NCBI GenBank assembly: GCA_002316675.1
Contig: DCDZ01000028.1
Location: 3,002-67,001 of the forward strand
Source of the DNA: Tyzzerella sp. UBA1042
Lineage (GTDB): Bacteria > Bacillota > Clostridia > Lachnospirales > Anaerotignaceae
DNA length: 64,000 nt
Direction: 5' to 3'
Made by a program: the position numbers and the translations under genes
Notes under the pieces: model-generated
Told to the model about the DNA's origin: nothing
The model's database searches: none
Seen by the model: the letters and a program-made list of their open reading frames with translations, nothing else
Shown: positions 13,065 to 48,318 of the stretch, one piece after another
Numbering within the stretch: position 1 is the stretch's first letter
How the letters are laid out: the number at the start of each line of letters is the position of its first letter

Positions 13065-13124
13065 TTAATCCTTTAAAGCGTTGTTGAGCTTTTTTAAAGC
13101 TTTTTTTTCTATGCGTGATACGTA
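13065..13124 (-). CDS. sigK: sigK 3' segment: end of the region 4.2 recognition helix plus C-terminal tail
   Basis: The minus strand reads (Y)VSRIEKKALKKLNNALKD-stop. This is exactly the sequence missing after ...GISRSY in the sigK 5' segment at 47677-48318. It has no start codon of its own. A CAGGGC-AAA-GCCCTG hairpin (13050-13064) follows the stop. Confidence 0.8.
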   Translation of the reverse strand, partial: YVSRIEKKALKKLNNALKD

Positions 13125-13342
13125 CTCTCCTGAGAGAGAAGGGGTAAATGTATCAGCCTTACTTATTTTGCTGGCAAAATATGTGAAAGGAATGAATTTT
13201 TTGTAAAATTTTGATAAATCCTGTGCAATTGTATGCTTTTCTTATTGTTTTATGTAATTAAGTTTGTTACAATATTTAAGATGAAAATGTAATCTGCGGT
13301 TCGGACAACATAGAGCTTATAAGTGTGTATTAGAAAAAGAGA

Positions 13343-16300
13343 GTGAATGTGATGAGAGAAAAAATATCATTAAAAAATCACAAGGGATATACATTGGTTG
13401 AAGTGCTGATTGCAGTGGCGATTATCATTATTATTAGTATCATTGCCATACCCGCAGTAGGCAGTTTGAAAAAAAGTCTGACATTAACGAAATATGATGA
13501 TACTGCACGGCAGATTTATCTGGTTTCTCAAAATAAGCTTACAACAATGAAATCCACAGGAACGTTGGGTGTTTTTTTAGATGCAGTAGAAAAAGACTAT
13601 GCAGCCCAGAAGCTTACGCAAGAGCCACAGGATTATAACGATGAAAAAACGGATTGGAAAGATCTATACTATTTTACCGATTCCGATACTGTTTTTGTAA
13701 ATTATATCATGGGTACCAGTTCTGTTTTAACGGCTTCCATGGAAAACGAAGGGCATTTTTTGGTTGAGTTGAACCCGAAAACAGGAGATGTTTACGGTGT
13801 CTTTTATGCGGAGAAAGCGTTTACATATGATGACATACAAGAACTTTTTTCCAGAGCGAAAAAAGCCCGCAAAACAAAAATGCTTGGCTATTATGGAGGT
13901 ATTTCGGAATTTTCCGCAGGGGAGGAACTGCCGACAGAGTTTACACCCACGGCAGGTATTGTGAATAAAGAGGATTTATATCTCAATATTGAATTAACGG
14001 GTATGCGACCGTTTATTAAAACACAAAATAAGCTTTTGGTATCCGTGACCGTAACGGACGAAAGCTATGATGCTGCAAAGCCCACAGAACATACCTTTAC
14101 CAAAGAATTAAAAGGCGGAACAGATTTTACAATTCAAAAGGCAAATTGCCAAATTCCGGTGCTTTTGGATAGTATCGAAGGCGGCAAGAACAGTTTTAGC
14201 AACATTACCGAGGGTAAGTTGACAGCAGGGGATAATATTCATATAACGGTATCTGTCACCTATGATGATGGAGAGGATATTCATATTACCGGCAATACCA
14301 TTGCCTCCACAAATAGTCTTTTTGCGAAAAAAGAGGTGGAAGGCGATTTAGAGGTGCAGTATGTACGTCATTTGAGGAATTTGGATGAGTCTGTTTATGA
14401 AGTAAATAAAAGTGAGGAAAGTAAGCCGATTACTGTTACCCAGACAAAACCCATTGATTATGATTATACCCAATGGGAAGATGACGCAAGAATTCCCGGA
14501 AATACAGGTGACAATCCTTATTCCGCTGACTTTGCACCTCTGAAAAACCTAAAATTATTTGACGGCATGACGTTTGATGGAAATAACAATGAAATTTTGA
14601 ACTTTAAGATATCCGGAGGCCATTATACCGGTTTATTTTCTAAATTAATAAATTCCCATATGAAAAACATGAAATTAGTCAATTTCAGTGTTACAGGGAA
14701 TTCTTATGTTGGTGCGTTGACCGGTCAGATCACAGGGGGAAGCATTACGAACTGCGGCGTATACCTAACAACGAGAAATGAATTTAATCAGCCGCTTCCG
14801 GATATGCCCGAGCGGGTTCAGCGTTATCAAGTAAAAGGGTCTCCTGAAGATTCTAGTTATGTAGGCGGCATGGTGGGGCAAGCAACCCAGCGTACTGTTA
14901 CCAAAGATTCCTTTGCTGCAATAAATGTTTCCGGTACAGCTTCTTTTATAGGAGGTTTTTGCGGACGATATGATAATGGTTCTATTACAAATTCTTATTC
15001 CTCAGGCGACGTTACCGGAGGACTTTGGTATACAGGCGGCTTTCTGGGAGAACTGAATAATTCTTCCATCAGCCAATGCTATTCTACCTCCGATGTAGTT
15101 TATGTGCTTGGTTCTGCAGGAGGGTTCGTTGGTCGTGCAGTTAACGGAAGTATTTCTGATTCCAATTCCTATGGCCTTGTGAAAAAAAAGGATGGCACTT
15201 CGGTTGTCGGGACCTCCGGAGGATTTGTAGGTGTTACGACCTCGACGATTCGTAATTGCAACTTTCTGAGGCAGCCGAACTACAATGCTGCTTATGAAAT
15301 AAGCCCTGCAGGTGTGAAGGGGCAAGGATTTTCTGGTTTAAAACCAGAAAAAGGTAATTCACCAAGTGATTGCTATCCTTATAAGGATGAATTGGTAGGC
15401 AACAGTATTCCTTTTAAAATGCTGGCGAGAGAGGGCGGGGCAATCATACCCCATTATGGTGATTGGCCGGGAGAGATGAAGCTGCAGACCTCTTTGGTAT
15501 ATTATGAAAAATATGCCACTGCCGATCAGGATGGGAATTATTACGGCTATTATGCCGAAACAAGCTTAACTGATGATGGGAGCGCATATGATTCAGGGAA
15601 AATCAATGGCTGGAGGCTAAATACTTTACGGCAGGAGCCTTGTGTTGAGGATGGGTATGCATTGATGACGATTTACGAACTAGGCGGTTTCCAATATGAG
15701 TTAAATGGGGATTTACCTAATCCAAAGAGAAATTCGGTGAAAGTTACAGATTCAGCAACGCCCACAGCCGAAGAAGCAACAAAAATTATGAATAGGGTTT
15801 CTTTGGTGTTCACCAATATTGAAGAAAGCAATATAAAGTATACCATTTCCAATGCAAGGGTTTATCGTCTGCCGTTTGCTTTGCAGATGACAGATAGAAA
15901 TACTGCGGCAAGGTTTTATGACCGGTTGGAAATCAGCTATGAAGGCAAGGGCAAAAAGACAGAAGAGTATACATTCTTCTATTGCCCTGACTTTGCAAAG
16001 AACGCCATCAATCCGGATATTAGTAGTACTGCGGCGGACACACCGCTGAATCCAACAGGGGATAAAAACCCGATTTCGGTTAGAAGCCCTCGTCATATAA
16101 ATGCTTTGGCGCGTGCGGCTTATTATTGGAACACCACAAAATGGACAGAGAGCACCGATATAAGGTATCATTTTGTGCAGGAAAATGACATTGATTTTGA
16201 ACTTTATACGAAAGAATACTGCGGAAAAAGCTATAATTTAATGGATGCTTCCAGCAAAAACACCTATAGAAACAGACCCATTGGCCGCCCTAATTCTCAG

Positions 16301-17374
16301 GCTTTTACGGATCCCAATGGGGATACCTATACACCCAGTAATTTTAGAAATCGTTATAATGGTCAAGGGTATAAGATTATAGACTATAGATGTATTACCA
16401 CAAAGGCAGATAGTTATCAGTTTACAGGGCTGTTTGGAGAAGTTCAGCAGGCAACCCTAAAAAACATTGTGATGATTGCCTCTGATCCCGAGAATGAGAG
16501 TGGATACGTTATTTCCCAATATAATGATGATAAGCATCCCGGCGTGGGAGCCTTAGTTGGTTTGGTTTATGTGGATATAGGAGGGAAGGATTACGAGGAC
16601 GGAACCCCCGCAACGGTGTCCAATTGTTCCGTGTCTGGCTACGTGGTGAGGTACGAGCCAGCTGGCGATGCAAACCATCCCAGTGCAGTGGGTGGTTTAG
16701 CAGGCTATAACTTCGGGAAAATTGAAAACAGCAGCGCAGTGAATAAGCTGGTAACTGCATCTGAAAAAGCTGGCAGACAGAACCGATATATTGGCGGTTT
16801 GGTTGGTTCTATGAATGGTCAGGGAAGTATCACAAATTGTTATGCAGGTGGTCTGGTTACAGTTGCAGATACTGGAAGACGGTCAACAAAAACAAACTTG
16901 GCAGGTATTTGTGCAGGTTTTGAAAATATCTATGGTGCATTTGATAGCAGTAGCGATAAAAGAAAAATGCTTATTAAAAACGTCTATTCCTATTGTAACC
17001 TGGAAAAAAATGAAAGAAATATGAGGACGTATGCTGTAGTAAATACCGAGGATAAGATAACTTTGTTCAGTAGAAGTGGCTATTATCTCTCCTCCAATGT
17101 GGAGAATATCACATCCTTAGAGGATAGAACTATCTCTCGAGGAATGAGCTTTGATGAATTGCGTGGGCTATCCTTCCAGGCCAGCGGCACTGCTGCGGCC
17201 TCAGGACGTGCCTCCGCAGACAATACCCATCCTTGGTCCAAGGATTTGGAATCCATTGCCTATTCTTACCCTGCAGTGGTAGTTGACCCAAGAAAGAACA
17301 ATACCACCTATGTTCATTATGGCGATTGGTCTTTGGCTAGGGATAGTGCTAGGGAGGAAAGGTTGGTACAGTGA
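13343..17374 (+). CDS. giant modular type IV pilin-like protein with a GLUG-type repeat module (candidate pilus adhesin)
   Basis: The N-terminus ...SLKNHKG|YTLVEVLIAVAIIIIISIIAIP is a prepilin cleavage/methylation motif with Glu at +5. It is followed by about 1300 aa containing about 10 spaced (Y/F)xGG(L/F/M)(V/C/L)G units (YVGALTGQ, YVGGMVGQ, FIGGFCGR, YTGGFLGE, AGGFVGR, SGGFVGV, AVGGLAGY, YIGGLVGS). The start could be GTG 13343 or ATG 13352. Confidence 0.85.
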   Translation: MNVMREKISLKNHKGYTLVEVLIAVAIIIIISIIAIPAVGSLKKSLTLTKYDDTARQIYLVSQNKLTTMKSTGTLGVFLDAVEKDYAAQKLTQEPQDYNDEKTDWKDLYYFTDSDTVFVNYIMGTSSVLTASMENEGHFLVELNPKTGDVYGVFYAEKAFTYDDIQELFSRAKKARKTKMLGYYGGISEFSAGEELPTEFTPTAGIVNKEDLYLNIELTGMRPFIKTQNKLLVSVTVTDESYDAAKPTEHTFTKELKGGTDFTIQKANCQIPVLLDSIEGGKNSFSNITEGKLTAGDNIHITVSVTYDDGEDIHITGNTIASTNSLFAKKEVEGDLEVQYVRHLRNLDESVYEVNKSEESKPITVTQTKPIDYDYTQWEDDARIPGNTGDNPYSADFAPLKNLKLFDGMTFDGNNNEILNFKISGGHYTGLFSKLINSHMKNMKLVNFSVTGNSYVGALTGQITGGSITNCGVYLTTRNEFNQPLPDMPERVQRYQVKGSPEDSSYVGGMVGQATQRTVTKDSFAAINVSGTASFIGGFCGRYDNGSITNSYSSGDVTGGLWYTGGFLGELNNSSISQCYSTSDVVYVLGSAGGFVGRAVNGSISDSNSYGLVKKKDGTSVVGTSGGFVGVTTSTIRNCNFLRQPNYNAAYEISPAGVKGQGFSGLKPEKGNSPSDCYPYKDELVGNSIPFKMLAREGGAIIPHYGDWPGEMKLQTSLVYYEKYATADQDGNYYGYYAETSLTDDGSAYDSGKINGWRLNTLRQEPCVEDGYALMTIYELGGFQYELNGDLPNPKRNSVKVTDSATPTAEEATKIMNRVSLVFTNIEESNIKYTISNARVYRLPFALQMTDRNTAARFYDRLEISYEGKGKKTEEYTFFYCPDFAKNAINPDISSTAADTPLNPTGDKNPISVRSPRHINALARAAYYWNTTKWTESTDIRYHFVQENDIDFELYTKEYCGKSYNLMDASSKNTYRNRPIGRPNSQAFTDPNGDTYTPSNFRNRYNGQGYKIIDYRCITTKADSYQFTGLFGEVQQATLKNIVMIASDPENESGYVISQYNDDKHPGVGALVGLVYVDIGGKDYEDGTPATVSNCSVSGYVVRYEPAGDANHPSAVGGLAGYNFGKIENSSAVNKLVTASEKAGRQNRYIGGLVGSMNGQGSITNCYAGGLVTVADTGRRSTKTNLAGICAGFENIYGAFDSSSDKRKMLIKNVYSYCNLEKNERNMRTYAVVNTEDKITLFSRSGYYLSSNVENITSLEDRTISRGMSFDELRGLSFQASGTAAASGRASADNTHPWSKDLESIAYSYPAVVVDPRKNNTTYVHYGDWSLARDSAREERLVQ

Positions 17375-17580
17375 GACTGTATGAGCAAGAGCGATGGAAT
17401 AATTGGAATTATTATGGAAACGGTGTCCTGTTTGACATTGGGAATACAAGCATTACAGAACTTGAAGCTCGGGGTAATCCGGTAGGAGAATATTCCTACT
17501 ATGAGTATTATGGATATGGCATTGTGTTTGACAGCGCCTTTGCAGAGTATTTATCTGATTGGGAAGCGGAATCTGTGTAG
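17371..17580 (+). CDS. small acidic Tyr/Asn/Gly-rich hypothetical protein, translationally coupled to the giant pilin gene
   Basis: The GTG start overlaps the TGA stop of the upstream gene (GTGA). It is 69 aa with no signal peptide and no recognisable motif. Confidence 0.4.
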   Translation: MRLYEQERWNNWNYYGNGVLFDIGNTSITELEARGNPVGEYSYYEYYGYGIVFDSAFAEYLSDWEAESV

Positions 17581-17832
17581 TCATTTGAATACACATCTGG
17601 ATGGAAAAAAAGAGACTGTACGGAGGCCAGTGTCGTTATCAAATTTAACATCATATACGTTGTCAAATAAAAATGCAAATGGTATAATTGTCAAAGCTTT
17701 TAGGGTTGACAGTGGATATTTAGAAAGCGTTACTGCGCGCAATCAAGAAGATGGTTCAGAGTATAAGTTTGTATGTTGTATATAGCAACAATACGTTCAC
17801 CTTCCAGTCTTAAAGAAACAGAGGTGCCTTTT

Positions 17833-18600
17833 ATGAAAAATATAAACAAAAAACTTAAAAGTGAAAAAGGTGCCTCTATCCTTCTTGCCCTCATGCTTTT
17901 TCTTGTCTGCTTTATGGTGGCCTCCGTTATTTTAAGCTCTGCCACAGCAAATGCAGATAAGCTTCACCAGCGGGAGGATAACCAAAGGGAGTATCTGTCT
18001 GTCAGTTCGGCTGCAACCCTTCTGCGGGATGTTTTGGGTGGAATAGAATATACCGGTTGGGAAAACAATAAGGTGTTTTATTATCAAGATGAGTCGGCAA
18101 TAAATTTGGGAACGCAAGAGGATATACCGGAAAAATGTGAGGCCATGGTGTATACTGAGGAGAAAGAAGCCAGAATGAGGGCAGAGCTGGAAAGAGCAAT
18201 TTATCAAGCATTTTCCTCTCATACGAAATGGTATACGAAAGTACCCGTTGCTGATGTATTGACAAAGGAGTTCGTAATATCCGGAGAGGGTATGGAGGAG
18301 ATTAAGGTTGTATTGTCTTTAGATACAAAAACCTATTATGTGACCTGCGAGCTCACGCAAAACGATAGTTCGGGAACGAACAATGCAATGACAGTGCTAT
18401 TTAAGGCGGCGGTTCACAAGGATGACTCTCCCCAAAGCCGTGAATATACGGATGAAAATTTTACATATTGGGAAGCAGTTCCTAATGCTGATGGGGAAGG
18501 CACCCACTGGGAAAGCAGGCTGTATAGAATTGTGGAATATAAAATTGTGACTAAAATCAGCTATGATGCAGGAACCATCACAAAGGGGGTATACCCTTGA
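17833..18600 (+). CDS. pilin-like minor component lacking Glu5 (PilX/GspK-like role possible)
   Basis: MKNINKKLKSEKG|ASILLALMLFLVCFMVASVIL has a basic leader, a Gly and a hydrophobic helix but no Glu at +5. The gene sits inside the pilin gene cluster. Confidence 0.6.
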   Translation: MKNINKKLKSEKGASILLALMLFLVCFMVASVILSSATANADKLHQREDNQREYLSVSSAATLLRDVLGGIEYTGWENNKVFYYQDESAINLGTQEDIPEKCEAMVYTEEKEARMRAELERAIYQAFSSHTKWYTKVPVADVLTKEFVISGEGMEEIKVVLSLDTKTYYVTCELTQNDSSGTNNAMTVLFKAAVHKDDSPQSREYTDENFTYWEAVPNADGEGTHWESRLYRIVEYKIVTKISYDAGTITKGVYP

Positions 18601-18908
18601 AATTAGAAAAAAAACGTAGAAGCATAAAAGGAGAAACACTGCTGGAAACCTTGGTCGCCATTCTTATTCTTACTATTTCCGCCATGATGCTGGCAGAGAT
18701 GACGGCTTCTTCAGTGAGAATTAACCGCACTGTAGAGAAGATAGACAAAGAATACCGGGAAAATGTGTCTGCAGCTGAAAAAAGGAAATTCTATAAAAAT
18801 GAAACGGTTACAATCAAAACAACTGATAAAGAATATACCTATAAGGTTGAATATTATGGAAAAGCAGATGGGCTAACCTCCTATAAAGCGGAGGAAGGGG
18901 AGATATGA
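18597..18908 (+). CDS. minor (pseudo)pilin
   Basis: MKLEKKRRSIKG|ETLLETLVAILILTISAMML has a prepilin-type leader with Glu at +5. The start overlaps the previous stop. Confidence 0.7.
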   Translation: MKLEKKRRSIKGETLLETLVAILILTISAMMLAEMTASSVRINRTVEKIDKEYRENVSAAEKRKFYKNETVTIKTTDKEYTYKVEYYGKADGLTSYKAEEGEI

Positions 18909-18909
18909 A

Positions 18910-19407
18910 ATGAAGGTGCTTCAAAAAATTGCAAATTGCAAGGGGTTCTCTTTGTTAGAATCTATGGCGGCATTACTCATTATCTCCATTCTAACCGTGG
19001 GAATTACCACCGGGGTAAACGCCGCATCTAAAATTTATCAACAATCCCTTTTTGTTTCCGAGGGAGACATATTGGCGGCTACGGTGGATACGGCACTATC
19101 CGATGTTCTGCGCTTTTCCTCAGAAATTAGTGAGGAAGATGGTGTGGTCAGCTTTACCAACGCAAACTACAGCGTAAAAAAGGGCCATTTGCTGTCGGAA
19201 AGCGGTTGGCTGTATTTAAATTTGCGGGGAGAGGAGGATGCACCTTTGGTTTTATTGCTGAATAATGGGGTTTATTCTTCTATGGAAATTAATTCTTTTC
19301 AACTAAGCTATGCGGAAGGTGTTTTTTCCGGCAGCTATGAAATAAAAAGCAAGAAGGATGATACGCTGGTAAAAAAGTACGCTTTTCATTTCCGCACGCT
19401 AAGCTGA
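18910..19407 (+). CDS. minor (pseudo)pilin
   Basis: MKVLQKIANCKG|FSLLESMAALLIISILTVG has the canonical G|F...E5 prepilin motif. Confidence 0.75.
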   Translation: MKVLQKIANCKGFSLLESMAALLIISILTVGITTGVNAASKIYQQSLFVSEGDILAATVDTALSDVLRFSSEISEEDGVVSFTNANYSVKKGHLLSESGWLYLNLRGEEDAPLVLLLNNGVYSSMEINSFQLSYAEGVFSGSYEIKSKKDDTLVKKYAFHFRTLS

Positions 19408-19444
19408 TTCCGGTCAATGCGCTGACAAGGAGGCGAAAGAGAAA

Positions 19445-21160
19445 ATGAAATTCAAACGACTTGGAGATATGCTGACCTCTACGGGAATGATTACGGAGGA
19501 ACAGCTGAAAGTTGCATTAAATAAACAAAGGGATACGAAAAACCGCTTGGGGAAAGAGTTAATTGAAGAAGGCGTTATTTCTGAGGAGCAATTAATTCAT
19601 ACGCTAAAGCTTCAGCTTGGATTGGATTCCATTGATCTGTCCACGGTCAATATACCCAGTGCGCTTTCTGAAATCATTCCGAAAAAAATGGCCAATAATT
19701 ATGGCCTTGTACCTGTAAAGCAGGAGGGGGACTCTCTGTATGTGGCAATGAGCGACCCCTTGAACTTTGTTGCCCTGGAGGATGTAAAGGCAGTAAGCAA
19801 AAAGCGCATTATACCCTTAATTGCCACGGAGGAATCCATACAAAGAAATATTGGCTCCTTATATGGCAATGAGGGTGCCGCCAGAGCCATTGAAGAAATG
19901 AAGCGAGAGATGAATGATGCCCCTGCGGCCGTTATTTTTGGCGATTCGTTCCTTTCCAATAACATAGATAACGATGAACAGTCTGCCCCAACCATTCGTT
20001 TGGTGAACTCCTTAATTGAACGTGCGGTATCGGAGCGTGCCAGTGATATTCATATTGAGCCTGCGGAAAATGAGGTTCGTGTGAGAATGCGTATTGACGG
20101 CTTGCTTCGTCAGATTATGATTGTGCCGAAGGATTTACAGTCCTCGGTCATTTCCCGCCTTAAAATTATGGGCGGCATGGATATTACAGAACGCAGAATC
20201 CCCCAAGACGGACGCTCTAACGCTAAGGTGAAAAAAGCGGATATCGACTTGCGTATGTCGACCTTGCCCACCATTTACGGAGAAAAACTGGTAATCCGTC
20301 TTTTGGATAAAAACACACAGCTTTTGGATAAAGCGAAAATCGGCTTGACAGGGGAGGATTTGGAGAAATATATGCGGCTGATCAACCAAAAGGGCGGCGG
20401 CGTGGTTTTGATTGCCGGTCCCACAGGCTCCGGTAAATCCTCCACACTGTATACAATGATTCGTGAACTAAATACAGAGCAAAGCAATCTGATTACATTG
20501 GAAGATCCTGTGGAATATAATATTGCCGGCATCAATCAAGTGCAAATTAACGAAAAAACAGGAATGACCTTTAGCGGAGGCCTGCGGGCAATCCTAAGGC
20601 AGGATCCGGATATTATTGCGGTGGGCGAAATCCGTGACGGCGAAACGGCGGAAATTGCCATGCGTGCGGCAATTACGGGGCATTTGGTATTATCTACCAT
20701 CCATACCAATAGCTCCATAGCCACCTTGGACCGCCTTTTGGATATCGGTGTTGAGCCCTATCTTATTTCCAGTGCCCTCAATGGCGTTGTTTCCCAGCGT
20801 CTTGTGCGTAGAATCTGCCCCCATTGCCGTAAGGAATATGAGCCTACCCAAGAGGAGCTGGCCAGCATTGGCCTTTCCCATGAAAACCACGGTTTTTATC
20901 ATGGCGAGGGCTGTCCCATGTGCTTTGGTACGGGATATCGGGGGAGAGTGGCAGTTTTTGAAATTTTGGTTATGGATAGAAAAGTAAAGAATGCCATATC
21001 AAGCGGTGCAAAAAGAGAAGAATTGGCGGAAATTATACACAGCCATAAAGGCTTTGTTGCCCTAGCAGATAATTGTCGCAGGCTTGTTTTGGAAGGTGTA
21101 ACCACTGTTGAGGAGGCAAAAAGAATTACGAATTCAGAGGATTATGAATATGAAAGTTAA
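19445..21160 (+). CDS. pilB: type IV pilus assembly ATPase PilB (GspE family)
   Basis: N-terminal T2SSE_N-like repeat (ITEEQLKVAL...), Walker A GPTGSGKSST, Asp and His boxes, and a CPHC...CPMC tetracysteine motif. Confidence 0.92.
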   Translation: MKFKRLGDMLTSTGMITEEQLKVALNKQRDTKNRLGKELIEEGVISEEQLIHTLKLQLGLDSIDLSTVNIPSALSEIIPKKMANNYGLVPVKQEGDSLYVAMSDPLNFVALEDVKAVSKKRIIPLIATEESIQRNIGSLYGNEGAARAIEEMKREMNDAPAAVIFGDSFLSNNIDNDEQSAPTIRLVNSLIERAVSERASDIHIEPAENEVRVRMRIDGLLRQIMIVPKDLQSSVISRLKIMGGMDITERRIPQDGRSNAKVKKADIDLRMSTLPTIYGEKLVIRLLDKNTQLLDKAKIGLTGEDLEKYMRLINQKGGGVVLIAGPTGSGKSSTLYTMIRELNTEQSNLITLEDPVEYNIAGINQVQINEKTGMTFSGGLRAILRQDPDIIAVGEIRDGETAEIAMRAAITGHLVLSTIHTNSSIATLDRLLDIGVEPYLISSALNGVVSQRLVRRICPHCRKEYEPTQEELASIGLSHENHGFYHGEGCPMCFGTGYRGRVAVFEILVMDRKVKNAISSGAKREELAEIIHSHKGFVALADNCRRLVLEGVTTVEEAKRITNSEDYEYES

Positions 21161-22196: not shown

Positions 22197-22230
22197 ACGG
22201 CCTTTGCCGTAAAGGAAAGGGGAGATATCC

Positions 22231-23427: not shown

Positions 23428-23601
23428 GGCTTTCCTAAACTTACCAGTGCAAACCGGCATCCTTTGCATTGCCAAAAGTAGGCACTGCACGTAAACTATA
23501 AAAGCACCATTGCCCTCTAAGGGGTATTAAGTTGGTATTTTTTGTGAGAACCCGCTCACAAATGATATATTTAATGTTGATGAATTAAGGAGGTACATAA
23601 T

Positions 23602-23997: not shown

Positions 23998-24080
23998 TGA
24001 TCTGATTAAAGCAGAAAAGCAGCCTATTTGCATCTAAAGGCAGCGGGTGATTTTACCCTCTAACCCCAATCCGATTACCA

Positions 24081-24120
24081 CGATAGAACTGGGGCGGGTT
24101 GCAGTTCTATCGTCGTTTTT
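24081..24120 (+). terminator. rho-independent terminator after pilA
   Basis: cgatagaactg (24081-24091) pairs perfectly with cagttctatcg (24102-24112), followed by tcgttttt. Confidence 0.6.
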
Positions 24121-24141
24121 GGTTGAAGGAGAGAAGCGATT

Positions 24142-24951: not shown

Positions 24952-25066
24952 ATACATCAATTTGAAAATGACCGGTCTGTTGGCCGGATGAGTATAAAGT
25001 ATCTTTTGAAAGGGTACATAATTTTGAAGAAATGACTTAGAGAGCTGGATATAAGGGAGGTTTCAT

Positions 25067-37087: not shown

Positions 37088-37112
37088 AATCTAATAAGAT
37101 GGAGAGGGTTAT

Positions 37113-38711: not shown

Positions 38712-38883
38712 AGGCTTTAGAAATTTTGAACGCAATGCTTGTTCATAACGGACAGTGTTTTATAACACATATGTATTGCATTGCGGTGCAATACACTTTG
38801 GACTATCCCCTTGGCGTAAAGCCAAGAATCCAAACGCCCGTTTCATAAAGGTTGAAAAGATAAGTGATAGAAAGAAGGAATGA

Positions 38884-40149: not shown

Positions 40150-40188
40150 TTTTGTGAAAACAGAAAATTTTTATGACTAAGACTGCTG

Positions 40189-40223
40189 GGAGGCGTCTGA
40201 ACTTTGGGACGTCTCCTTCTTTC
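40189..40223 (+). terminator. candidate terminator after the amidohydrolase gene
   Basis: ggaggcgtc (40189-40197) pairs with gacgtctcc (40208-40216) with one mismatch, followed by a T-rich ttctttc. Confidence 0.4.
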
Positions 40224-40430
40224 ATCACATTTTGAATAAGAAACAATGGAAAGAAGGTTGATTTGAAAAGAAAAACGCAATTTGGGGATGAGGAATTTAA
40301 CAAAAAAGTTCTTGTTCATTTCGGCTTCTGAAGATAACAGAGACAAAAATAAGTTTTGGTTTGCCGTAAAAAGGAATCGGTGAAAGTTTAGGTGATACTA
40401 TGCAGATTGATCCTGAACAGATGAGAGGAG

Positions 40431-41717
40431 TTGAAGAATTTGAGTAAAGTAATTAAATCAACATATGTTTCTGAGGCTGTTGATGGCTTTACCCCAAGAA
40501 CCGCTATGGAGGAAGCTTCAAGGTGCTTATTATGCCATGATGCCCCTTGCAGCAAAAGCTGTCCAGCCGGCACAGATCCTGCAAAATTTATTCGCTCTAT
40601 TCGGTTTAGAAATGTTAAGGGTGCGGCGGAAACGATCAGAGAGAACAATGTTTTGGGTGGCAGCTGTGCCAGAGTCTGTCCTTATGATCGGCTTTGTGAA
40701 GAAGCTTGCAGCAGATGCGGCATTGATAAACCCATTGAGATTGGAAAATTACAAAGATTTGCTGTGGAGCAGGAGGAAGCTTTACATATGAATGTACTGC
40801 AGGTTCCCGCTACAAAGAAGGGTGTAAAGGTTGCCTGTGTTGGCTCCGGCCCCGCCTCTCTTGCTTGTGCGGCAATGCTTGCGCAAGAGGGATATGAGGT
40901 TACGATTTATGAAGCTGAGGAAAAGGCCGGCGGCGTTTTAACTTATGGGATTGCCCCCGCCAGATTGCCGCAGTATGTTGTTGATCATGATATTAGTACA
41001 GTGAAAAATTTAGGCGTAAAGTTCATTTTCAATACAAAGATTGGAAAAGATATTTCCATGGAAGCACTGCAAAAAGAATACGGTGCAATATTTATCGGTG
41101 TCGGCTTATGGCAGGAAAAACTTCCGGAAATCCCCGGTGTGGGCCTTCCCGGTGTTCTGGCGGCGGCAGATTTTTTGAAAAAAGCAAGAAAGTCAGGGGG
41201 TTCGTATCATCCCGGTAACAGGGTTGTTGTAATCGGCGGCGGCAACGTTGCTATGGACTGCGCTGTTTCTGCAAAACTATTGGGCGCAGAAAAGGTGGAT
41301 ATTTATTACAGAAGAACCATTGAGGAAGCACCCGCTGATATGGCGGAATTCCAGTATGTGCTGTCTCTGGGTGTTTCCATTACAACTAACTTTGCGCCTG
41401 CTGAGGTGCTTGGCACAGACAAAGTGGAAGCAATGCGCTTTAAAGGCAGAGACGGTGTATCTGAGGCAAAGGTTATGGTGGATACAGTTATTTTTGCAAT
41501 CGGACAAGGTGCAGATGATATGACAGAGTTAGCGCCCTTTGCACTGAATGAAAAAGGTTTAATTAAAGTTGATGATTTCTGCAAAACAAATATTGACGGT
41601 ATTTTTGCAGGTGGTGACGTGGCTTTAGGCGGGAAGACTGTTGTGGAAGCTGTTGCATCGGGTAAAATTGCGGCGGTACATATGATGAATTATCTTGCTA
41701 AGAAAGAGGTGAAGTAA
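40431..41717 (+). CDS. preT: NAD-dependent dihydropyrimidine dehydrogenase subunit PreT-like (glutamate synthase small-subunit fold)
   Basis: [23 protein letters not shown] (Fe-S) then [14 protein letters not shown] and [14 protein letters not shown] dinucleotide folds. TTG start after a GAGAGGAG RBS. Confidence 0.85.
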
Positions 41718-41718
41718 A

Positions 41719-42972
41719 ATGGGGATCAAAAAAGACTTATCTATTGATTATTTAGGTGTGAGATGTGAAAATCCTTTTTTCTTGTCCTCATCTCCTGTAG
41801 GCAGTAATTACGAAATGGTTGCCAAGGCTTTTGAAGCCGGCTGGGGCGGTGTTTTTTACAAGACAATCGGTATTTTCGTTGCGGATGAGTGCTCACCTCG
41901 TTTTGACCATGTGCAAAAAGAAGGGATGCCTTGGCTGGGCTTTAAGAATATGGAGCAGATTTCCGATAAGCCTACGGAAGTCAACTTTGAAAATATGTAT
42001 AAGCTAAAAAAGGCTTATCCCGAAAAAATCATGGTTGCTTCTATTATGGGCTCCAATGAGGAAGAGTGGCGTAAGCTGGCAAAAATGTGTGATGAAGTTG
42101 GTGTGGATTTAATTGAAGGAAACTTCTCTTGTCCTCAGATGACTTCCCATGCTATGGGCTCCGACGTTGGTACAAACCCAGACTTGGTGCGGGCGTATTC
42201 CAAGGCTGTGGCGGAAACCACAAAAATTCCTTTTATCGCAAAAATGACACCGAATATTACAGATATGACCATTCCTGCCATAGCAGCAATTGAAGGCGGC
42301 GCAAAGGGCATTTCTGCAATCAATACCATTAAATCCATCACAAATATTGACTTGGAAAATATGACGGCGATGCCCGTTGTAAACGGAAAATCCTCCATTT
42401 CCGGCTATTCCGGTGCGGCGGTGAAACCCATTGCCCTGCGCTTTGTGGCACAGCTGCTGCAAAATGAGAAGCTGAAAAATGTGCCTCTTTCCGGCATTGG
42501 CGGTATTGAAACATGGAGAGACTGCTTGGAATTCCTGCTGCTTGGATGCAGAAATCTGCAGGTAACTACATCTGTGATGCAGTATGGTTACAGAGTGGTT
42601 GAAGATATGTCTAATGGTCTGATGCACTGGATGGATGAAAGGGGCTATCATAAGCTGGATGATTTCATCGGATCAGCATTGGGCAACATCATTCCTGCGG
42701 AAGATTTGAACCGTGATTTTAAAATTTTGCCTGACTTTAGCCAGACAAAATGTGTTGGTTGCGGCAGATGCTACATTTCTTGCTACGATGCAGGCCATCA
42801 GGCAATTGATTGGAATGCGGATAAGCGCAGACCGGAATTAAACGAAAAATGCGTTGGCTGCCATCTCTGTCTGAATGTATGTCCTGTTGCAAATTGTATT
42901 ACACCGGGCGAAATCAAATGGAAAGACGGCAGAGAAAAAGTAGGCGTTGCTTTAAAGAAGTCTTATGAATAA
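41719..42972 (+). CDS. preA: dihydropyrimidine dehydrogenase subunit PreA-like (DHOD-fold plus two 4Fe-4S motifs)
   Basis: DHOD/DHPD-like barrel ([29 protein letters not shown]) and C-terminal [11 protein letters not shown] and [12 protein letters not shown] clusters. Confidence 0.9.
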
Positions 42973-43067: not shown

Positions 43068-43133
43068 CGTTGTCATTGACCATCGGTTCCGAATAGGACG
43101 AGAGCATTTTTTATATAAATAAAAAAGGGGGGG

Positions 43134-43397
43134 ATGGAGGTGCTTGTATTGACGTTAGCCGAATTGGAAGAAATGAAGAAGGTCAATCCGTGGGAAATAG
43201 ACCCGGAGGAGCTAATTGATATTAATGATGTGGTGATTCGTACAGATTTGCCAAGGGAAGAAAGAATTGCCGATTTTATTCAGCAAATCAAAAATCCGTA
43301 CCTGTTTCGCTGCGGAGATTTGGTAGTCAAGGTAGAATTTACCGGAGAGGAAATTACGCTGTCAGATCGGATTCAGCAGTATATGAGGTTGATGTGA
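43134..43397 (+). CDS. small conserved hypothetical protein preceding the recombinase genes
   Basis: 87-aa ORF (LAELEEMKKVNPWEIDPEELIDINDV...NPYLFRCGDLVVKVEF). From memory, proteins of this kind often precede clostridial large serine recombinase genes. Its function is unknown. Confidence 0.6.
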   Translation: MEVLVLTLAELEEMKKVNPWEIDPEELIDINDVVIRTDLPREERIADFIQQIKNPYLFRCGDLVVKVEFTGEEITLSDRIQQYMRLM

Positions 43398-43450
43398 GCA
43401 TTGGAACCGTAGGAAAGTAGAGTACCTTTGTAGCTTTGAGAGGGTTGCGT

Positions 43451-45052
43451 ATGAAAGAAGACAAGGTGTATCGGGCGGGGATTTATCTACGGCTATCCCG
43501 GGAAGATGGGGATAAGGCAGAAAGCAATAGCGTACAGACACAAAGAACGCTGATTCAATCCTTTTTGAAGAAGAAAAAGGATATTTTTGTTGTGAGCGAA
43601 AAAATTGACGATGGTTTTAGCGGTGTAAGCTTTGAACGGCCGGCCTTTCGTGCGCTGATGGAGGAAATCAAAAGGGGTACCATCAATTGCGTGGTGGTAA
43701 AGGACCTTTCCCGTTTTGGCAGAAATTATTTGGAAGCGGGAAGGTATATTGAACAAATTTTCCCCTTTTTGGGTGTTCGTTTCATTGCTGTAAACGACAA
43801 TATCGATACTGCCCAAGATACTGCATATGAAAATTATATGATTGTACCCTTTAAAAATTTGTTAAATGACGCCTATAGTCGGGATATTTCCATAAAGGTG
43901 CGTTCTCAATTGGAGGCACGGCAAAAAAACGGTGAATTTGTGGGAGCCTTTCCTGTTTACGGATACCGCCGTTCTTCGGGAAATAAGCATAGGCTGGTGA
44001 TGGACGCCTCCGCCGCAGATATGGTAAAAAAGATATTTGCAATGCGTATTGGGGGATGGAATAATTTATACATAGCCCGGTATTTAAACCATCTGGGTAT
44101 CCCCTCCCCTGTAGAATATAAGGAAGGCTGTGCTTCAAACTATGCCACACCCTTCAAATTAAACCCCAAGGCAAAATGGTCCCCCGGGACAGTGGATCGG
44201 ATATTAAAAAATGCAATATACACGGGGGATTTGATACAAGGGAAGGAAACAACATTCAGCTATAAACTGAAAAAAAGAGTAAAAAAACCGGAAGAGGCTT
44301 GGATCAAAAGGGTGAATACCCATGAAGCCATTATACCAAGGGAGGACTTTGAAATTGCACAGCAAATTATGCAAAATGATACGAGAACAGCCCCCCAACA
44401 AAAAAGGCTTTATCCGCTGTCCGGGATGCTGAAATGCGGAGACTGCGGCAGTAATATGGTGCGTAAAACCGCAAGGGCCGGCGGAAAGGCCTATACCTAC
44501 TATATATGTGGGACAAATAAAGCAAATAAATGGGAATGCTCCAGCCATAGAATTCGGGAAGCTTTGGCAGAGGAAGCATTGCAGACGTTTTTTCAAAAAC
44601 AGATCACGTTATTTGAGCAATCGGTTCGGCTCCGGGAGAGAGAAATTCAGACAAAAAGAAATGAGAAAGAAGCAATGGAGAAGCTGCTAAATTCTCAGAA
44701 AGAAGAATTGTCTCGTAATAAAGAATTAATCAGATATTTATATGAGGATTTTTGCCGTGGCCTTCTTACTGAAGAGGAATATTTTTCTATGAAATTCGGC
44801 TATGAGGAAATTTGCAGTGCGCTTGCAAAGAGCTTGGAGGCTTTACTGTGCAAAAAAAAGGAGCTAGAAGCAGTGAAAGAGGGCGGTCATGAGAACGCTT
44901 CCGCTAAAAATAACAATGTTCAAATGGAACGCACTGCTGTGGTCGTATTCTTTGAAAAATTGATCGTGCTGGATAGCAAAACAATTCGGGTGATTCCTCG
45001 ATTTCAAGATGAACTCATGCTGTTTGCTAAGAGGAAAGAAGAACTGCGTTGA
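43451..45052 (+). CDS. large serine recombinase 1
   Basis: Catalytic N-domain YRAGIYLRLSREDGD...QTQR, VVKDLSRFGRNYLE, a recombinase domain, a Cys-rich zinc ribbon (CGDCGSNM...YYICG...C) and a coiled-coil tail. Confidence 0.9.
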   Translation: MKEDKVYRAGIYLRLSREDGDKAESNSVQTQRTLIQSFLKKKKDIFVVSEKIDDGFSGVSFERPAFRALMEEIKRGTINCVVVKDLSRFGRNYLEAGRYIEQIFPFLGVRFIAVNDNIDTAQDTAYENYMIVPFKNLLNDAYSRDISIKVRSQLEARQKNGEFVGAFPVYGYRRSSGNKHRLVMDASAADMVKKIFAMRIGGWNNLYIARYLNHLGIPSPVEYKEGCASNYATPFKLNPKAKWSPGTVDRILKNAIYTGDLIQGKETTFSYKLKKRVKKPEEAWIKRVNTHEAIIPREDFEIAQQIMQNDTRTAPQQKRLYPLSGMLKCGDCGSNMVRKTARAGGKAYTYYICGTNKANKWECSSHRIREALAEEALQTFFQKQITLFEQSVRLREREIQTKRNEKEAMEKLLNSQKEELSRNKELIRYLYEDFCRGLLTEEEYFSMKFGYEEICSALAKSLEALLCKKKELEAVKEGGHENASAKNNNVQMERTAVVVFFEKLIVLDSKTIRVIPRFQDELMLFAKRKEELR

Positions 45053-45067: not shown

Positions 45068-46051
45068 ATGAATATGGCAAGAAAAAGCAGAAAAATAAAG
45101 CAAGCCCCCCTCCTTGTAAATGAAAATAAAACGAAGTGCTACCGGGCAGGAATTTATGCAAGGATTTCTGTACCAGACGGGGAGTTGGATGGCACTTCGA
45201 TTGCCAATCAAATATGCATCGCAAAAAATTATCTGGACGAACAGAAGGATATGGTTTTAGCCGGGATTTATATCGACCATGGACAAACAGGCACCCATTT
45301 TGAGCGGCCTGCTTTTTTTAGACTTTTGCAGGATATTGAGGAGAAAAAAATAAATTGTATTCTCGTAAAAGATTTTTCTCGTTTTGGCAGAAACTATTTG
45401 GAGGTAGGGGAGTATCTGGAAAATTATTTTCCCCAAAAAAATATAAGATTTATTGCGGTGAACGACCATTTTGACAGCGTTCATAAGAGGAAGCAGGAGG
45501 ATTTGATTGTTTCCTTGAAAGCCATCGTCAACGATAGCTATGCAAAAGATATTTCAAAAAAAGTAAGTACGGCCATTACCGCAAAAAAGAAGGCGGGTAA
45601 ATTTATGAGCAGCAAGCTGCCTTATGGCTACAAACGCTCCGACACAGACAAATATCAGCTGGAAATCGTGGAGGCCCAGGCGGTAGTGGTAAGAAAAATA
45701 TATGAGCTGTACTTGGAAGGCTTTAGCGGGGCTGCCATTGCACGACGGCTGAATGATATGGGTGTGCCGTCGTGGCGGAAGCTGCGTTTTTTAGAAGGGT
45801 ACGGCGATGGCACAGAAAATGCCCTTTGGCATAGTGGGGCAGTCATTGGGATTTTAAGAAATCCGTGCTATTTGGGCTGCCTTGTGGAACGAAAAACGGA
45901 AAAAGTGCTGTATAAAGGCGGACAACTGCGGGCTTTTCCCAGAGAAAGCTGGAATATCATCGAAAATACCCATGAACCCATTATATCGCGGGAAACGTTT
46001 GACCGGGTTCAGTGTCTGTTAATGGGGCGAAATGGGGTGGTGAAAAAATAG
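45068..46051 (+). CDS. serine recombinase 2, short form without zinc-ribbon or coiled-coil
   Basis: YRAGIYARISVPDG..., LVKDFSRFGRNYLE and a recombinase domain. It ends after 327 aa, only 10 nt before the next gene. Confidence 0.8.
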   Translation: MNMARKSRKIKQAPLLVNENKTKCYRAGIYARISVPDGELDGTSIANQICIAKNYLDEQKDMVLAGIYIDHGQTGTHFERPAFFRLLQDIEEKKINCILVKDFSRFGRNYLEVGEYLENYFPQKNIRFIAVNDHFDSVHKRKQEDLIVSLKAIVNDSYAKDISKKVSTAITAKKKAGKFMSSKLPYGYKRSDTDKYQLEIVEAQAVVVRKIYELYLEGFSGAAIARRLNDMGVPSWRKLRFLEGYGDGTENALWHSGAVIGILRNPCYLGCLVERKTEKVLYKGGQLRAFPRESWNIIENTHEPIISRETFDRVQCLLMGRNGVVKK

Positions 46052-46061
46052 GGGGAGTATT

Positions 46062-47630
46062 ATGAAACTTGGTATCTATCTTCGTGTTTCTGATGAGGAT
46101 CTGCAGGGGGAAGAAAGCAATAGCATAGACGGACAAAGGGAAGTGCTGCATGGCTATATTCATAAAACGGAAGCGTTGTCAAAATGTGAGATTTTAGAGT
46201 TTTGCGACGATGGGTATAGTGGCACAAGCTTTCAAAGACCGGCGGTGCAGGCTCTGCTGCAAAAAGCCCGGGCGGGAGAAATTCATTGCATACTGGTGAA
46301 GGATTTCTCTCGTTTTGGCCGAAACTATATCGAGGTTGGAACATATGTGGAACAGCTTTTTCCAAATCTTGGTGTGCGCTTTATTTCCGTAAATGAACAT
46401 TTTGACAGCGGTGCATCCCAAGGGGAAGATACCTTCATAAGCACTGCATTTCAAAACCTTGTGTATGATCTTTACAGCAGAGATTTGTCACAAAAAATTA
46501 TCAGTGCGAAACGGGCTGCCGCCGGAGCCGGAAAGTTTGTCACAGCGTTTGCACCCTATGGCTATCGTAAAGATAAGGGACAGAGACTTTTCATTGATGA
46601 AGAGGCGGCCTTTGTGGTGAGAAGGATTTTTGCTGCAGCGGCCCAAGATGTATCCAAAACCGAAATTGCGGAAATGCTGAATCGTGAGAGGGTTCCCAGC
46701 CCCTTATGCCTTCGCAAGATGCGGGGGGAGCCTTTTCCTTCCTCCTTTGGGGGAAGAACCTATTTCTGGAACGCAGTCGCCATAAGCCGTATTTTAAAGG
46801 ACAGAAGATATGTGGGGGATGGGGTATACGGAAAAACACGAAGAACAGCCGTGGGCAGTATCGTAGAAGAAAAGGTGCCCAAAGAGGAATGGCTCCTTGT
46901 GCCCCACGCCCAGGAAGCCATTGTAAGCCGGGATATTTTTGAGGCGGTCAATGCCCAGTGTAAGACATACCGGAGGAGAAGAAAAACAGAAAGATATCCC
47001 CTTTCAAAAAAGGTGCACTGTGGTGTATGCAAGGGTAGAATACCCGGGAAAAGTGTAAGAGCAAAAAATGGAGAGGATGTAAGGGTTTTTTATCAATGCA
47101 GTACCTTGGCTTGTTCAAAAACCTGCGGCTGTTATGGGGGAAAATTTGAGGAAATGCAGCTTTCCAATATGATTTTAAGTGTTTTGAATCATTTTTCTAT
47201 CATTGCAGAGGGGAACCGCTGGAAAATAGAAAAGAAAAGGCAGGTGCAAACAGAAATAAACGGTATACAGGAATTTTTTATACAGCAGGAAAAGTTGCAA
47301 AAAAATCTTAACGTGACCATGCTCCGATTGTATGAAAGGTACCGAGAGAATGGGCTGAATGAAAAAACATTTTTAGAAAAAAAACGGAAAATACTGCATT
47401 TGACGGAAAAAAGCAAAGAAGAGATGGAAGAAAAGAAAAAAAGACTACATTTGCTATATGCAAATTTCAATAAAGAGTCTTACGAAGAGAACCAAAACTC
47501 TTTCTCTGCTTTCACAAGGAAGGAGGCAGAAAATTTTATTGATGCTGTGGTCATTGAGCAAGATGGTTCCATAAAAGTGATAGTTCCGTTTCGGGATGTT
47601 TTCACCAAACAGGGAGAGGCCCAGGAATAA
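46062..47630 (+). CDS. large serine recombinase 3
   Basis: MKLGIYLRVSDEDL...IDGQREV, LVKDFSRFGRNYIE, a recombinase domain, a Cys-rich motif (CGVCKGR...YQCS...C) and a coiled-coil tail. Its stop lies 47 nt from the shared GTA core at the right junction (about 49 nt from the element's right end). Confidence 0.9.
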   Translation: MKLGIYLRVSDEDLQGEESNSIDGQREVLHGYIHKTEALSKCEILEFCDDGYSGTSFQRPAVQALLQKARAGEIHCILVKDFSRFGRNYIEVGTYVEQLFPNLGVRFISVNEHFDSGASQGEDTFISTAFQNLVYDLYSRDLSQKIISAKRAAAGAGKFVTAFAPYGYRKDKGQRLFIDEEAAFVVRRIFAAAAQDVSKTEIAEMLNRERVPSPLCLRKMRGEPFPSSFGGRTYFWNAVAISRILKDRRYVGDGVYGKTRRTAVGSIVEEKVPKEEWLLVPHAQEAIVSRDIFEAVNAQCKTYRRRRKTERYPLSKKVHCGVCKGRIPGKSVRAKNGEDVRVFYQCSTLACSKTCGCYGGKFEEMQLSNMILSVLNHFSIIAEGNRWKIEKKRQVQTEINGIQEFFIQQEKLQKNLNVTMLRLYERYRENGLNEKTFLEKKRKILHLTEKSKEEMEEKKKRLHLLYANFNKESYEENQNSFSAFTRKEAENFIDAVVIEQDGSIKVIVPFRDVFTKQGEAQE

Positions 47631-47676
47631 AATGTTTGTGGCGATTTTTAAGATTTCGCCCTAAAATCACAGGAGA

Positions 47677-48318
47677 GTATGATCGTGATATTCCTAAGCG
47701 CTCGGCGATTTCTTGCTGTGTCAAAATATCCTGATTGCACAATCCGTATCGAAGGATGATAACTGCCCGTTCTCTGGGTGTGAGGGTACTCTGGATTGCC
47801 GCCATCATCTTTTCCGATTTCATGGAAAAATCAATGGTTTCCACAAAATCCGGTGTGTCGCTGTTGATGATGTCCAGCATGACGATTTCGTTTCCGTCCC
47901 GGTCGGTACCGATGGGTTCGTGCAGTGAAATATCGTTCTGATATTTTTTACCGCTTCTGAGCCACATGAGCAATTCGTTTTGCACACATTTTGCGGCGTA
48001 GGAGACAAGGCGGACGTTTTTATCTGCGTTATACGAATCCACGGCCTTGATTAACCCGATGATGCCGATTGAGATGAGCTCCTCCGGTTCTTTTACGCTG
48101 CTTGAATATTTTTTTGCAATGTGCGCCACCAGCCGCAGATTATGAAGTATCAATTTATCTTTTGCTTCCTTTTTTTCGCTTTCGTTTCCTGACTGATATT
48201 GTTTTAAGTAGTAGGCTTCTTCTTCTTTGGATAATGGTTTTGGAAAAGCACCGGAAGAAGAAAAGCCAAATAAGAAAGGCAAAGCGGCGAAGAGAAGGAA
48301 CACACATACACCCCCCAA
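47677..48318 (-). CDS. sigK: sigK 5' segment: pro-sequence and regions 1.2 to 4.2, up to GISRSY
   Basis: ...FGFSSSGAFPKPLSKEEE matches the pro-sigma-K AFPxPLS processing region. HNLRLVAHIAKKY, DLISIGIIGLIKAVDSY, YAAKCVQNELLM and TQQEIAERLGISRSY follow. The track ORF then continues for 24 non-sigma codons (SPVILGRNL...) into the element. The start is TTG 48318 or an in-frame GTG 48303. Confidence 0.85.

Follow-up and report, generated by a model that had tools for sequence, protein, structure and literature searches.

A probable skin-like intervening element splits sigK near its 3′ end in the Anaerotignum propionicum clade

Introduction

Intervening elements that split the sporulation sigma factor gene sigK are known in Bacillus subtilis, Clostridioides difficile, Clostridium tetani, Clostridium perfringens and other species. 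A survey catalogued 15 such split genes, whose elements span 2.6–48 kb (Galperin et al. 2022, bioRxiv 10.1101/2022.02.25.481979, Table S7). All 15 splits were located mid-gene, with 5′ parts of 114–152 amino acids and 3′ parts of 89–138 amino acids, and each element had a single spoIVCA gene and a phage origin inferred by the authors (Galperin et al. 2022, bioRxiv 10.1101/2022.02.25.481979). Here we describe a 34,555-bp element in the sigK gene of an uncultured Anaerotignum species of the Anaerotignum propionicum clade. It lies in a 64,000-nucleotide stretch of contig DCDZ01000028.1 (Tyzzerella sp. UBA1042), which was analysed as a whole and is called the window below. We consider it likely to be a skin-like sigK-intervening element that is excised in the mother cell.

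Phage content is not essential to gene-intervening elements, since the gin element in gerE of Bacillus cereus ATCC 10987 is non-prophage; it is 28.6 kb long and carries three serine recombinase genes (Abe et al. 2017, PMC5595907). Its excision in mid-sporulation needs the large serine recombinase (LSR) GirC and a 6.5-kDa recombination directionality factor (RDF), GirX. The genes girA and girB form an operon with girC apart, the mutual identity of the three recombinases is 22–26%, and the cargo consists mostly of genes of unknown function together with a restriction-modification system (Abe et al. 2017, PMC5595907).

The Anaerotignum element shares its target with skin, and its multiple recombinases and lack of phage genes with gin. 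It resembles skin (recombinase SpoIVCA in B. subtilis, CD1231 with the RDF CD1234 in C. difficile) in the sigK target, the co-oriented gene parts, an LSR at the edge and attachment (att) sites made of a short core and inverted repeats. As for skin, relatives have an intact sigK, and the expected outcome is a sigK gene rejoined by excision. In contrast to skin, it has three tandem recombinases with a DUF6870 protein rather than one spoIVCA, these adjoin the N-terminal fragment whereas spoIVCA is usually found beside spoIIIC, and the prophage-like content of the classical elements is missing. With gin it shares the absence of phage genes, a similar size, three serine recombinases and a target gene for a late mother-cell regulator, a likeness of gene content. 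It differs from gin in its target, in the tandem arrangement of the recombinases behind DUF6870, in their higher mutual identity (32–39%) and in a cargo that forms a coherent metabolic pathway. New are the near-terminal site, the coherent host-type metabolic cargo and the clade-wide vertical inheritance.

Results

The 5′ part of sigK was a minus-strand open reading frame (ORF) at 47602–48318. It encoded residues 1–214 of pro-sigma-K (47677–48318), including a hydrophobic pro-sequence, the AFPKPLSKEEE stretch and HNLRLVAHIAKKY. These residues ended in ...TQQEIAERLGISRSY and were followed by 24 unrelated codons from the element arm and a stop codon. The 3′ part, on the same strand at 13065–13121, consisted of 18 codons (VSRIEKKALKKLNNALKD) and a stop codon, had no start codon, and represented the second half of the region 4.2 recognition helix plus the C-terminus. 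The two parts were co-oriented and in frame. Exactly 34,555 bp (13122–47676) separated them, inserted between Tyr214 and Val215 of pro-sigma-K and 18 codons short of the gene end. The joined ORF was 232 amino acids long, and the repaired junction predicted from the two junction sequences was gcgtgatacGTAtgatcgtga.

The joined protein scored 290.9 bits with the NCBIfam model NF004471 (SigK subfamily, cut-off 252), compared to 263.4 bits for the truncated ORF, and its alignment reached the end of the model. With the SigK equivalog TIGR02846 it scored 281.5 bits, under the cut-off of 298.65, and its SigK score was approximately 80 bits above its SigE score. The Pfam Sigma70_r4 match in the truncated ORF ended at model position 35 of 50, which places the break inside the recognition helix of the region 4.2 helix-turn-helix. 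Intact SigK orthologues continued with ...GISRSYVSRIEKKALKKL... across the split point, and the joined protein aligned with them end to end. The genes left of the element encoded an O-methyltransferase, a U32 peptidase and MarR (12545–12976), and those to the right were spoIIAA-spoIIAB-sigF (48445–50012). No further sigK-like sequence was present in the window, in which the sole other match was sigF (24% identity).

These results agree with a sequence-only reading of this stretch, which had proposed the two ORF parts, a gap of 34.6 kb, a product of about 232 amino acids, marR and spoIIAA as flanks and a break within the region 4.2 helix-turn-helix. Its coordinates and sequences held to the base, and the joined ORF aligned over its full length with SigK orthologues, as that reading implied. 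It had also set the position of the split apart from the roughly mid-gene one in B. subtilis, and a break 18 codons from the stop codon in the region 4.2 recognition helix is indeed unusual, as it lies outside the mid-gene range of all 15 catalogued cases.

The closest SigK proteins to that of the window all belonged to Anaerotignum. At least 10 Anaerotignum genomes were split at the identical codon, both type strains among them. They included A. propionicum DSM 1682 (AMJ41725.1), A. propionicum DFI.7.94, A. neopropionicum DSM 3847, Anaerotignum sp. MB30-C6 (complete genome) and several metagenome-assembled genomes. Eight of the closest 90%-identity SigK clusters were broken at this codon, reading ...GISRSY and then S[PSC][VD]I[IL]G[LR]N..., a tail that comes from the element arm. 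More distant Anaerotignum SigK proteins were uninterrupted (...SRSYVSRIEKKALKKL...). When one genome per species was scanned with the adjacent U32 peptidase as the query, the orphan 3′ fragment was found right after marR in 9 further species-level genomes, and an intact sigK was present at the equivalent place in many others. Since the same split recurs in at least 10 independent genomes, it did not arise by chance.

The window derives from a 103-kb metagenome contig (ERZ724031 NODE_106), and the split might in principle be an assembly artefact or the product of a chimeric contig. This explanation is refuted by the same architecture in the complete genome of the isolate MB30-C6 (CP133078), in two type-strain drafts and in many independent assemblies, and we regard it as having next to no probability. 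The proteins of the split clusters are labelled 'RNA polymerase sporulation sigma factor SigK' by NCBI. A 5′ ORF long enough for annotation as a complete SigK probably also explains why A. propionicum DSM 1682, which was in a 180-genome set and scored as a spore-former, is not in the table of split sigK genes (Galperin et al. 2022, bioRxiv 10.1101/2022.02.25.481979). A literature search found no paper tying sigK splitting to propionicum or Anaerotignum.

The orphan 18-codon fragment was compared across 10 split genomes. Residues 1–13 were invariant, and the variable sites were distributed over codon positions 1, 2 and 3 as 6, 2 and 12. Pairwise codon differences were synonymous in 236 cases versus 75 non-synonymous ones, all of the latter confined to the last 5 codons. 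Nucleotide identity was 85% in the fragment versus 47% in the next 57 nt downstream. By these measures the 18 codons are under purifying selection. A fragment without a start codon that is under such selection must be joined to the rest of the gene.

This comparison also bears on the possibility that sigK is a pseudogene, inactivated for good by the insertion in a lineage that does not sporulate or has no need of sigma-K, with the recombinases in decay. Such decay could be read from the middle recombinase, whose C-terminal domains are missing in the A. propionicum subclade, and from the fast divergence of the recombinases; because NCBI takes the truncated ORF as SigK, the problem would also have gone unflagged. 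However, purifying selection on the orphan codons and on the 5′ part in 10 genomes largely refutes permanent inactivation. The recombinase and DUF6870 ORFs of the element were open in every element, both att arms were conserved, and spoIIAA-spoIIAB-sigF was intact and 88–98% conserved. A. propionicum is moreover listed as a spore-former, and the precise repaired junction occurs in nature. We therefore consider a sigK pseudogene very improbable.

Empty sites provided natural examples of the repaired junction. Four loci (L003, L010, L088 and L095) had an intact sigK in the order sigF-spoIIAB-spoIIAA-sigK-marR-U32; in L003 and L010 the sequence continued to the methyltransferase gene with nothing intervening. 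The uninterrupted marR-sigK-spoIIAA arrangement that the sequence-only reading had suggested looking for in relatives was present in L003, L010 and L095. The intact contig L088 (run SRR8197463) matched five split contigs of the same run series (SRR8197461/62/66/69/74) with 100.000% identity along the 4,318 bp that lead to the crossover. An intact SigK (P0148) and a split one (P0143) had an identical 214-residue N-terminal part. Another intact protein (P0127) shared all 214 residues with the split SigK of A. propionicum (P0123). Its contig passed the repaired junction by exactly 55 nt, identical to the 3′ fragment of A. propionicum, and then ended; this end looks like a de Bruijn graph branch caused by two junction types in one sample. 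A third intact protein (P0135) was one residue apart from its split counterpart (P0131), at approximately 95% DNA identity. Judged from these junctions, precise loss of the element restores an intact sigK in nature.

The coexistence of occupied and empty sites within species and within one run series would also be expected if the element were an integrative genomic island for which sigK is no more than the attachment site and which undergoes sporadic vegetative excision or permanent loss, uncoupled from the sporulation programme. Spores would then depend on a rare prior excision, or the element would act as an on/off switch at the population level. C. difficile strains without skin are known, which fits this explanation too. 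On the other hand, a spore-former could not retain a sigK gene that is only occasionally intact unless excision were reliably induced in sporulating cells. Further evidence on both sides of the island explanation came from the recombination module, the site itself and the cargo.

The left att junction (13122–13148) consisted of the core GTA (13122–13124), a second copy of the Tyr codon TAC, and then the left inverted-repeat arm GTACTCTCCTGAGAGAGAAGGGGTAAA. At the right junction (47654–47679), the right arm TTTCGCCCTAAAATCACAGGAGA was followed by the core GTA at 47677–47679, which is the Tyr214 codon of sigK. The shared 3-bp core was TAC in the sense of sigK and GTA on the plus strand. In the sense of sigK, the 5′ part entered the element as ...CGATCA TAC followed by TCTCCTGTGATTTTAGGGCGAAA, and the element passed into the 3′ part as TTTACCCCTTCTCTCTCAGGAGAG TAC followed by GTATCACGC. 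The arms formed inverted repeats of approximately 25 bp, of which 19 of 26 positions matched in the window in a by-eye count aligned from the core. The left arm was kept as TAC TC.CCTGTTACA..AGGGCTAAA in 9 other genomes. The arms of other genomes read TTTAGCCCT-N4-TAACAGGAGAG and CTCTCCTGTTA-N4-AGGGCTAAA, and core and arms were kept at both ends in every element. Within the window the arm motif was restricted to the two element ends and was found nowhere else. The joined arms formed the palindrome CAGGAGAGTACTCTCCTG, and the excised form would bear a near-perfectly palindromic attP of approximately 50 bp, with the TA of the core at its centre.

A second, unrelated element family split sigK within the same three codons (Y-V-S) in Anaerotignum-like sequences (L019:11994-21359, L027:12001-16577 and L099:3649-6067). 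In L019 and L027, a different arm (CGCTTACAATAAACGTG...) preceded the 3′ fragment, and the elements carried genes for ParA, Fic, type I restriction-modification (HsdR/HsdM) and GmrSD. The matching 5′ junction (P0092, ...SRSYVS followed by HHAYCKRCRL) was found in L099, next to a single LSR of 522 amino acids and a 47-amino-acid ORF. The LSR of this family was only 28–39% identical to the three of the window, so that two recombinase lineages cross over within the same three codons. That a second element of the defence-island type occupies nearly the same site speaks for the island explanation.

A recombination module of four genes in a single orientation was located at the element end adjoining the 5′ part of sigK, all on the plus strand. 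The first gene (43134–43397) encoded an 87-amino-acid DUF6870 protein (Pfam PF21757, E 2.3e-28). It was followed by the distal LSR 1 (43436–45052; 538 amino acids; Pfam Resolvase, Recombinase and Zn_ribbon_recom; YLRLS catalytic-serine motif). The middle serine recombinase 2 (45068–46051; 327 amino acids) had the catalytic and recombinase domains, without a zinc ribbon or coiled coil. The att-adjacent LSR 3 (46062–47630; 522 amino acids; Pfam Resolvase and Recombinase) overlapped with its 3′ end the foreign tail of the sigK 5′ ORF; a zinc ribbon gave no match in it and a weak one in its orthologues. All three recombinases had the Y-x-R-x-S catalytic motif. The gene order was identical in every related element (L001, L085, L086 and L096), and DUF6870 was placed ahead of the tandem LSRs in all sigK elements. 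The middle recombinase comprised 318–327 amino acids in the A. propionicum subclade (318 in L085 and L096) and 472–540 in L001, L086 and L089.

The module was more divergent than its surroundings. Between the same genome pairs (the window versus L001, L085, L086, L089 and L096), amino acid identity was 46–76% for DUF6870 and 44–71% for the LSRs, in contrast to 87–95% for the cargo proteins PreA and PreT and 88–98% for the flanking SigF and SpoIIAB. LSR 3 was 44–49% identical to its orthologues in other elements. Two processes could account for this divergence, very rapid change in situ or repeated exchange of the module for a related one.

Relatives of DUF6870 in IMG/VR were followed by tandem LSRs in the same order in 30 of 30 contigs (L183-L212), with three LSRs wherever the contig was long enough. 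In contrast to the module in sigK, none of these 30 was located beside a sigma factor gene. DUF6870 with three LSRs is in this respect a generic mobile module, which again fits an island. Triple serine-recombinase modules are reportedly also found in streptococcal integrative and conjugative elements (ICESp1108) and in an island of C. difficile RT023, elements said to be conjugative or phage-like and to use other target genes; the Anaerotignum element shares with such mobile elements the three co-oriented LSR genes at one end. The nearest solved relative of LSR 3 was the catalytic domain of TnpX (2mhc, E 1.6e-24), a distant similarity to the recombinase of C. perfringens Tn4451, and at full length LSR 3 aligned weakly to SprA/YokA (9dxh, E 1e-8). 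Unlike the three recombinases here, TnpX and the SPbeta recombinase SprA act singly, SprA with the RDF SprB. A phage or plasmid origin of LSR 3 was considered and rejected, as every tblastn match in phage and plasmid collections had <40% identity. By its position, LSR 3 is most likely the excisionase-integrase, and DUF6870 is a candidate RDF. A literature search on DUF6870 found no paper that mentions it.

Upstream of the module, at 43093–43120 on the plus strand, an invariant motif (ATAGGAC-N7-TTTTTTATATAAAT) was located approximately 20 nt ahead of the ribosome-binding site of DUF6870. It occurred once per element in 8 elements and was the sole conserved block of an intergenic region otherwise unalignable between species. 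A role as a generic part of DUF6870-LSR modules was rejected, since 27 other modules lacked the motif at the corresponding position. Its specificity to sigK-resident modules, ahead of the recombination operon, argues against an island uncoupled from sporulation. The motif is a candidate developmental promoter or SpoIIID-type box, and its TAGGACAA fits the SpoIIID box consensus, WWRRACAR. The region upstream of sigK (48340–48420, minus strand) contained GGACAAA and CATACAAT, which resemble the SpoIIID box and the sigmaE −10 element of B. subtilis. By analogy with spoIVCA in B. subtilis and CD1234 in C. difficile, these motifs are compatible with mother-cell control.

The remainder of the element was taken up by cargo. 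A type IV pilus cluster (13343–27231, plus strand; Pfam N_methyl, Glug, T2SSE, Peptidase_A24 and PilM_2) began with a 1343-amino-acid GLUG-repeat pseudopilin and minor pilins. It continued on the same strand with PilB (19445–21160), PilT (21108–22196), PilC (22231–23427), the major pilin (23602–23997), a prepilin peptidase (24142–24951) and PilM/N/O (25067–27231). This 14 kb cluster was present in six elements (window, L005, L006, L007, L011 and L013) and not in four (L008, L009, L012 and L018), and its presence differed even between the close relatives L009 and L011. The element of MB30-C6, approximately 22 kb long, was without it. The pilus cluster was also considered as a separately accreted element, an idea that gained no support, as no att-like site was found between pilO and acrC (27232–27596) and the arm motif occurred only at the element ends.

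The genes acrC-acrB-acrA (27597–30695, plus strand) encoded an acryloyl-CoA reductase, i.e., a propionyl-CoA dehydrogenase with electron transfer flavoprotein subunits. They exceeded all three NCBIfam equivalog cut-offs (bits/cut-off: NF042972 684/640, NF042971 523/475, NF042970 696/600). A third block on the plus strand (30948–33996) encoded two hot-dog proteins of 126 amino acids and one of 152, a family III CoA-transferase (31356–32537) and a nitroreductase (Pfam). The hot-dog proteins were related to beta-alanyl-CoA:ammonia lyase (PDB 4mtu, C. propionicum Acl2; E 7.5e-7 and 5e-15), and NCBIfam relatives of the CoA-transferase scored under the equivalog cut-offs. The two 126-amino-acid Acl-like genes (30948–31328 and 33075–33455) were near-identical and flanked the CoA-transferase gene and the 152-amino-acid paralogue; the order of the Acl-like genes varied among the elements L008, L009 and L012. 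Among the large cargo genes, that of a MerR/GyrI-like regulator (34228–35205; Pfam MerR_1 and GyrI-like) was alone in lying on the minus strand.

The block for reductive pyrimidine catabolism (35723–42972, plus strand) encoded a dihydropyrimidinase, an NCS1 permease, a carbamoylase-family amidase, and the PreT-like and PreA subunits of dihydropyrimidine dehydrogenase. Scores with NCBIfam models were above the cut-offs (bits/cut-off: TIGR02033 490/393, NF006771 443/399, NF006183 for PreA 608/335). In L085:15541-16768 (JGI contig Ga0122086_100044), preA appeared as two ORFs of 131 and 268 amino acids, due to a frameshift or a sequencing error. Read together, the cargo would convert uracil via dihydrouracil, N-carbamoyl-beta-alanine, beta-alanine, beta-alanyl-CoA and acryloyl-CoA to propionyl-CoA, with putative specificities of the CoA-transferase and the lyase. 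The assignment leans on the established beta-alanine fermentation of C. propionicum.

Scans of the element ORFs of ≥120 amino acids with Pfam and NCBIfam found neither phage genes nor conjugation genes. A foreign base composition was also rejected: the GC content of the element (0.422) equalled that of its flanks (0.43 and 0.41), and there was thus no compositional sign of recent acquisition. The acrCBA and metabolic cargo was 86–92% identical in other elements, like core genes, and the pyrimidine block was 87–95% identical. In two more distant relatives (L105 and L118), acr, the CoA-transferase gene, Acl and merR formed an ordinary chromosomal cluster with no recombinase gene or sigK piece within 10 kb. 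A metagenome scan with AcrC, intended to detect the cargo away from sigK in close relatives, yielded no relative above 81% identity. The cargo is genus-typical host metabolism with a variable type IV pilus cluster, and not phage. Unlike that of skin, it is of host type, includes pili, and shows core-like conservation across the clade, in which it has been co-inherited with the chromosome.

Cargo divergence (87–95%) tracked core-genome divergence (88–98%), which points to a long residence with vertical inheritance and not to frequent transfer. Together with the lack of conjugation and phage genes among these ORFs, it argues against an integrative island that is uncoupled from sporulation, and we consider such an island unlikely.

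Beyond the element, two tandem glyceraldehyde-3-phosphate dehydrogenase genes (50925–53416; 335 and 339 amino acids) were located right of sigF, a position kept in relatives. Their assignment is based on ORF sizes and on Gp_dh Pfam matches of the equivalent genes in L001, L085, L086 and L096. A separate low-GC (0.33) island at 53900–64000 started with a 182-amino-acid tyrosine-integrase fragment (53940–54488) and contained ORFs of unknown function and an M15 peptidase gene (61987–62550). L086 had a full-length tyrosine integrase at the equivalent place, after two glyceraldehyde-3-phosphate dehydrogenase genes. This island is probably a prophage or island remnant, separate from the sigK element.

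Discussion

The claim of the sequence-only reading that this is a sigK-intervening element that has to excise to yield functional SigK was supported by the empty sites, contig L088, selection on the orphan fragment, the recombinases at the element edge and the conserved core and arms. Its non-phage nature, host-type cargo, three recombinases and spread across the clade go beyond that reading. That the element is site-specifically excisable is very likely. That its excision is a programmed mother-cell event is stated with more reserve; it seems probable from the selection arguments, the precedent of known elements and the upstream motif.

In sporulating cells, expression of the module would start in the mother cell, possibly at the ATAGGAC...TATATAAAT site. 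LSR 3, perhaps with its partner LSRs, would recombine attL with attR, and DUF6870 or another small protein would serve as the RDF. The element would leave as a circle, sigK would be rejoined and pro-sigma-K could be made. The forespore chromosome would retain the element, which would secure its vertical inheritance.

Several points weigh against programmed excision by this route. Known LSRs owe their polarity to a non-palindromic central dinucleotide, and the predicted attP is unusual for such enzymes in having the palindromic TA as its symmetry centre. A search for the attP of the excised circle with a degenerate 50-nt pattern covering all observed arms gave 0 matches in JGI metagenome contigs and IMG/VR; as circles in mother cells are rare and unlikely to assemble, this null result is uninformative rather than negative. 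The check for a second intact sigK was confined to the window. The mixture of intact and split forms and the contig end of k-mer length may reflect coexisting strains or permanent loss rather than excision in the mother cell. The acting recombinase, the RDF and the promoter or SpoIIID box upstream of the module are candidates, and the timing of excision during sporulation is inferred.

A bolder reading is that the 22–35 kb segment represents domesticated programmed DNA elimination, in which a block of genus-typical core metabolism between att sites (AcrCBA and the route from uracil and beta-alanine to propionate, with or without pili) is cut from the chromosome of the terminally differentiated mother cell. 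The three recombinases would act as a heteromeric machine that DUF6870 switches. We regard this as speculative and rather doubtful. If it were true, reversible or sporadic vegetative excision would make a single genetic switch for competence to sporulate, propionate metabolism and piliation. The insertion hot spot in the sigma-K recognition helix, which two LSR lineages use independently, would then reflect selection for an inert 5′ product from a gene that still looks intact.

With the skin-like element described here, sigK-intervening elements extend to Anaerotignum and the Lachnospirales, and to a new kind of site. Near-terminal splits may hide in other genomes as well, as annotation pipelines name the truncated ORF SigK. 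The system is tractable because A. propionicum DSM 1682 and A. neopropionicum DSM 3847 are cultured type strains. Acryloyl-CoA reductase defines the acrylate route to propionate and finds use in metabolic engineering; since the element carries this enzyme, strain stability and the copy state of the acr genes would be linked to site-specific recombination. The cassette of DUF6870 and three LSRs is widespread and uncharacterised, and the attL, attR, attB and inferred attP sites from many species form a comparative data set on why three recombinases are retained and how directionality is controlled.

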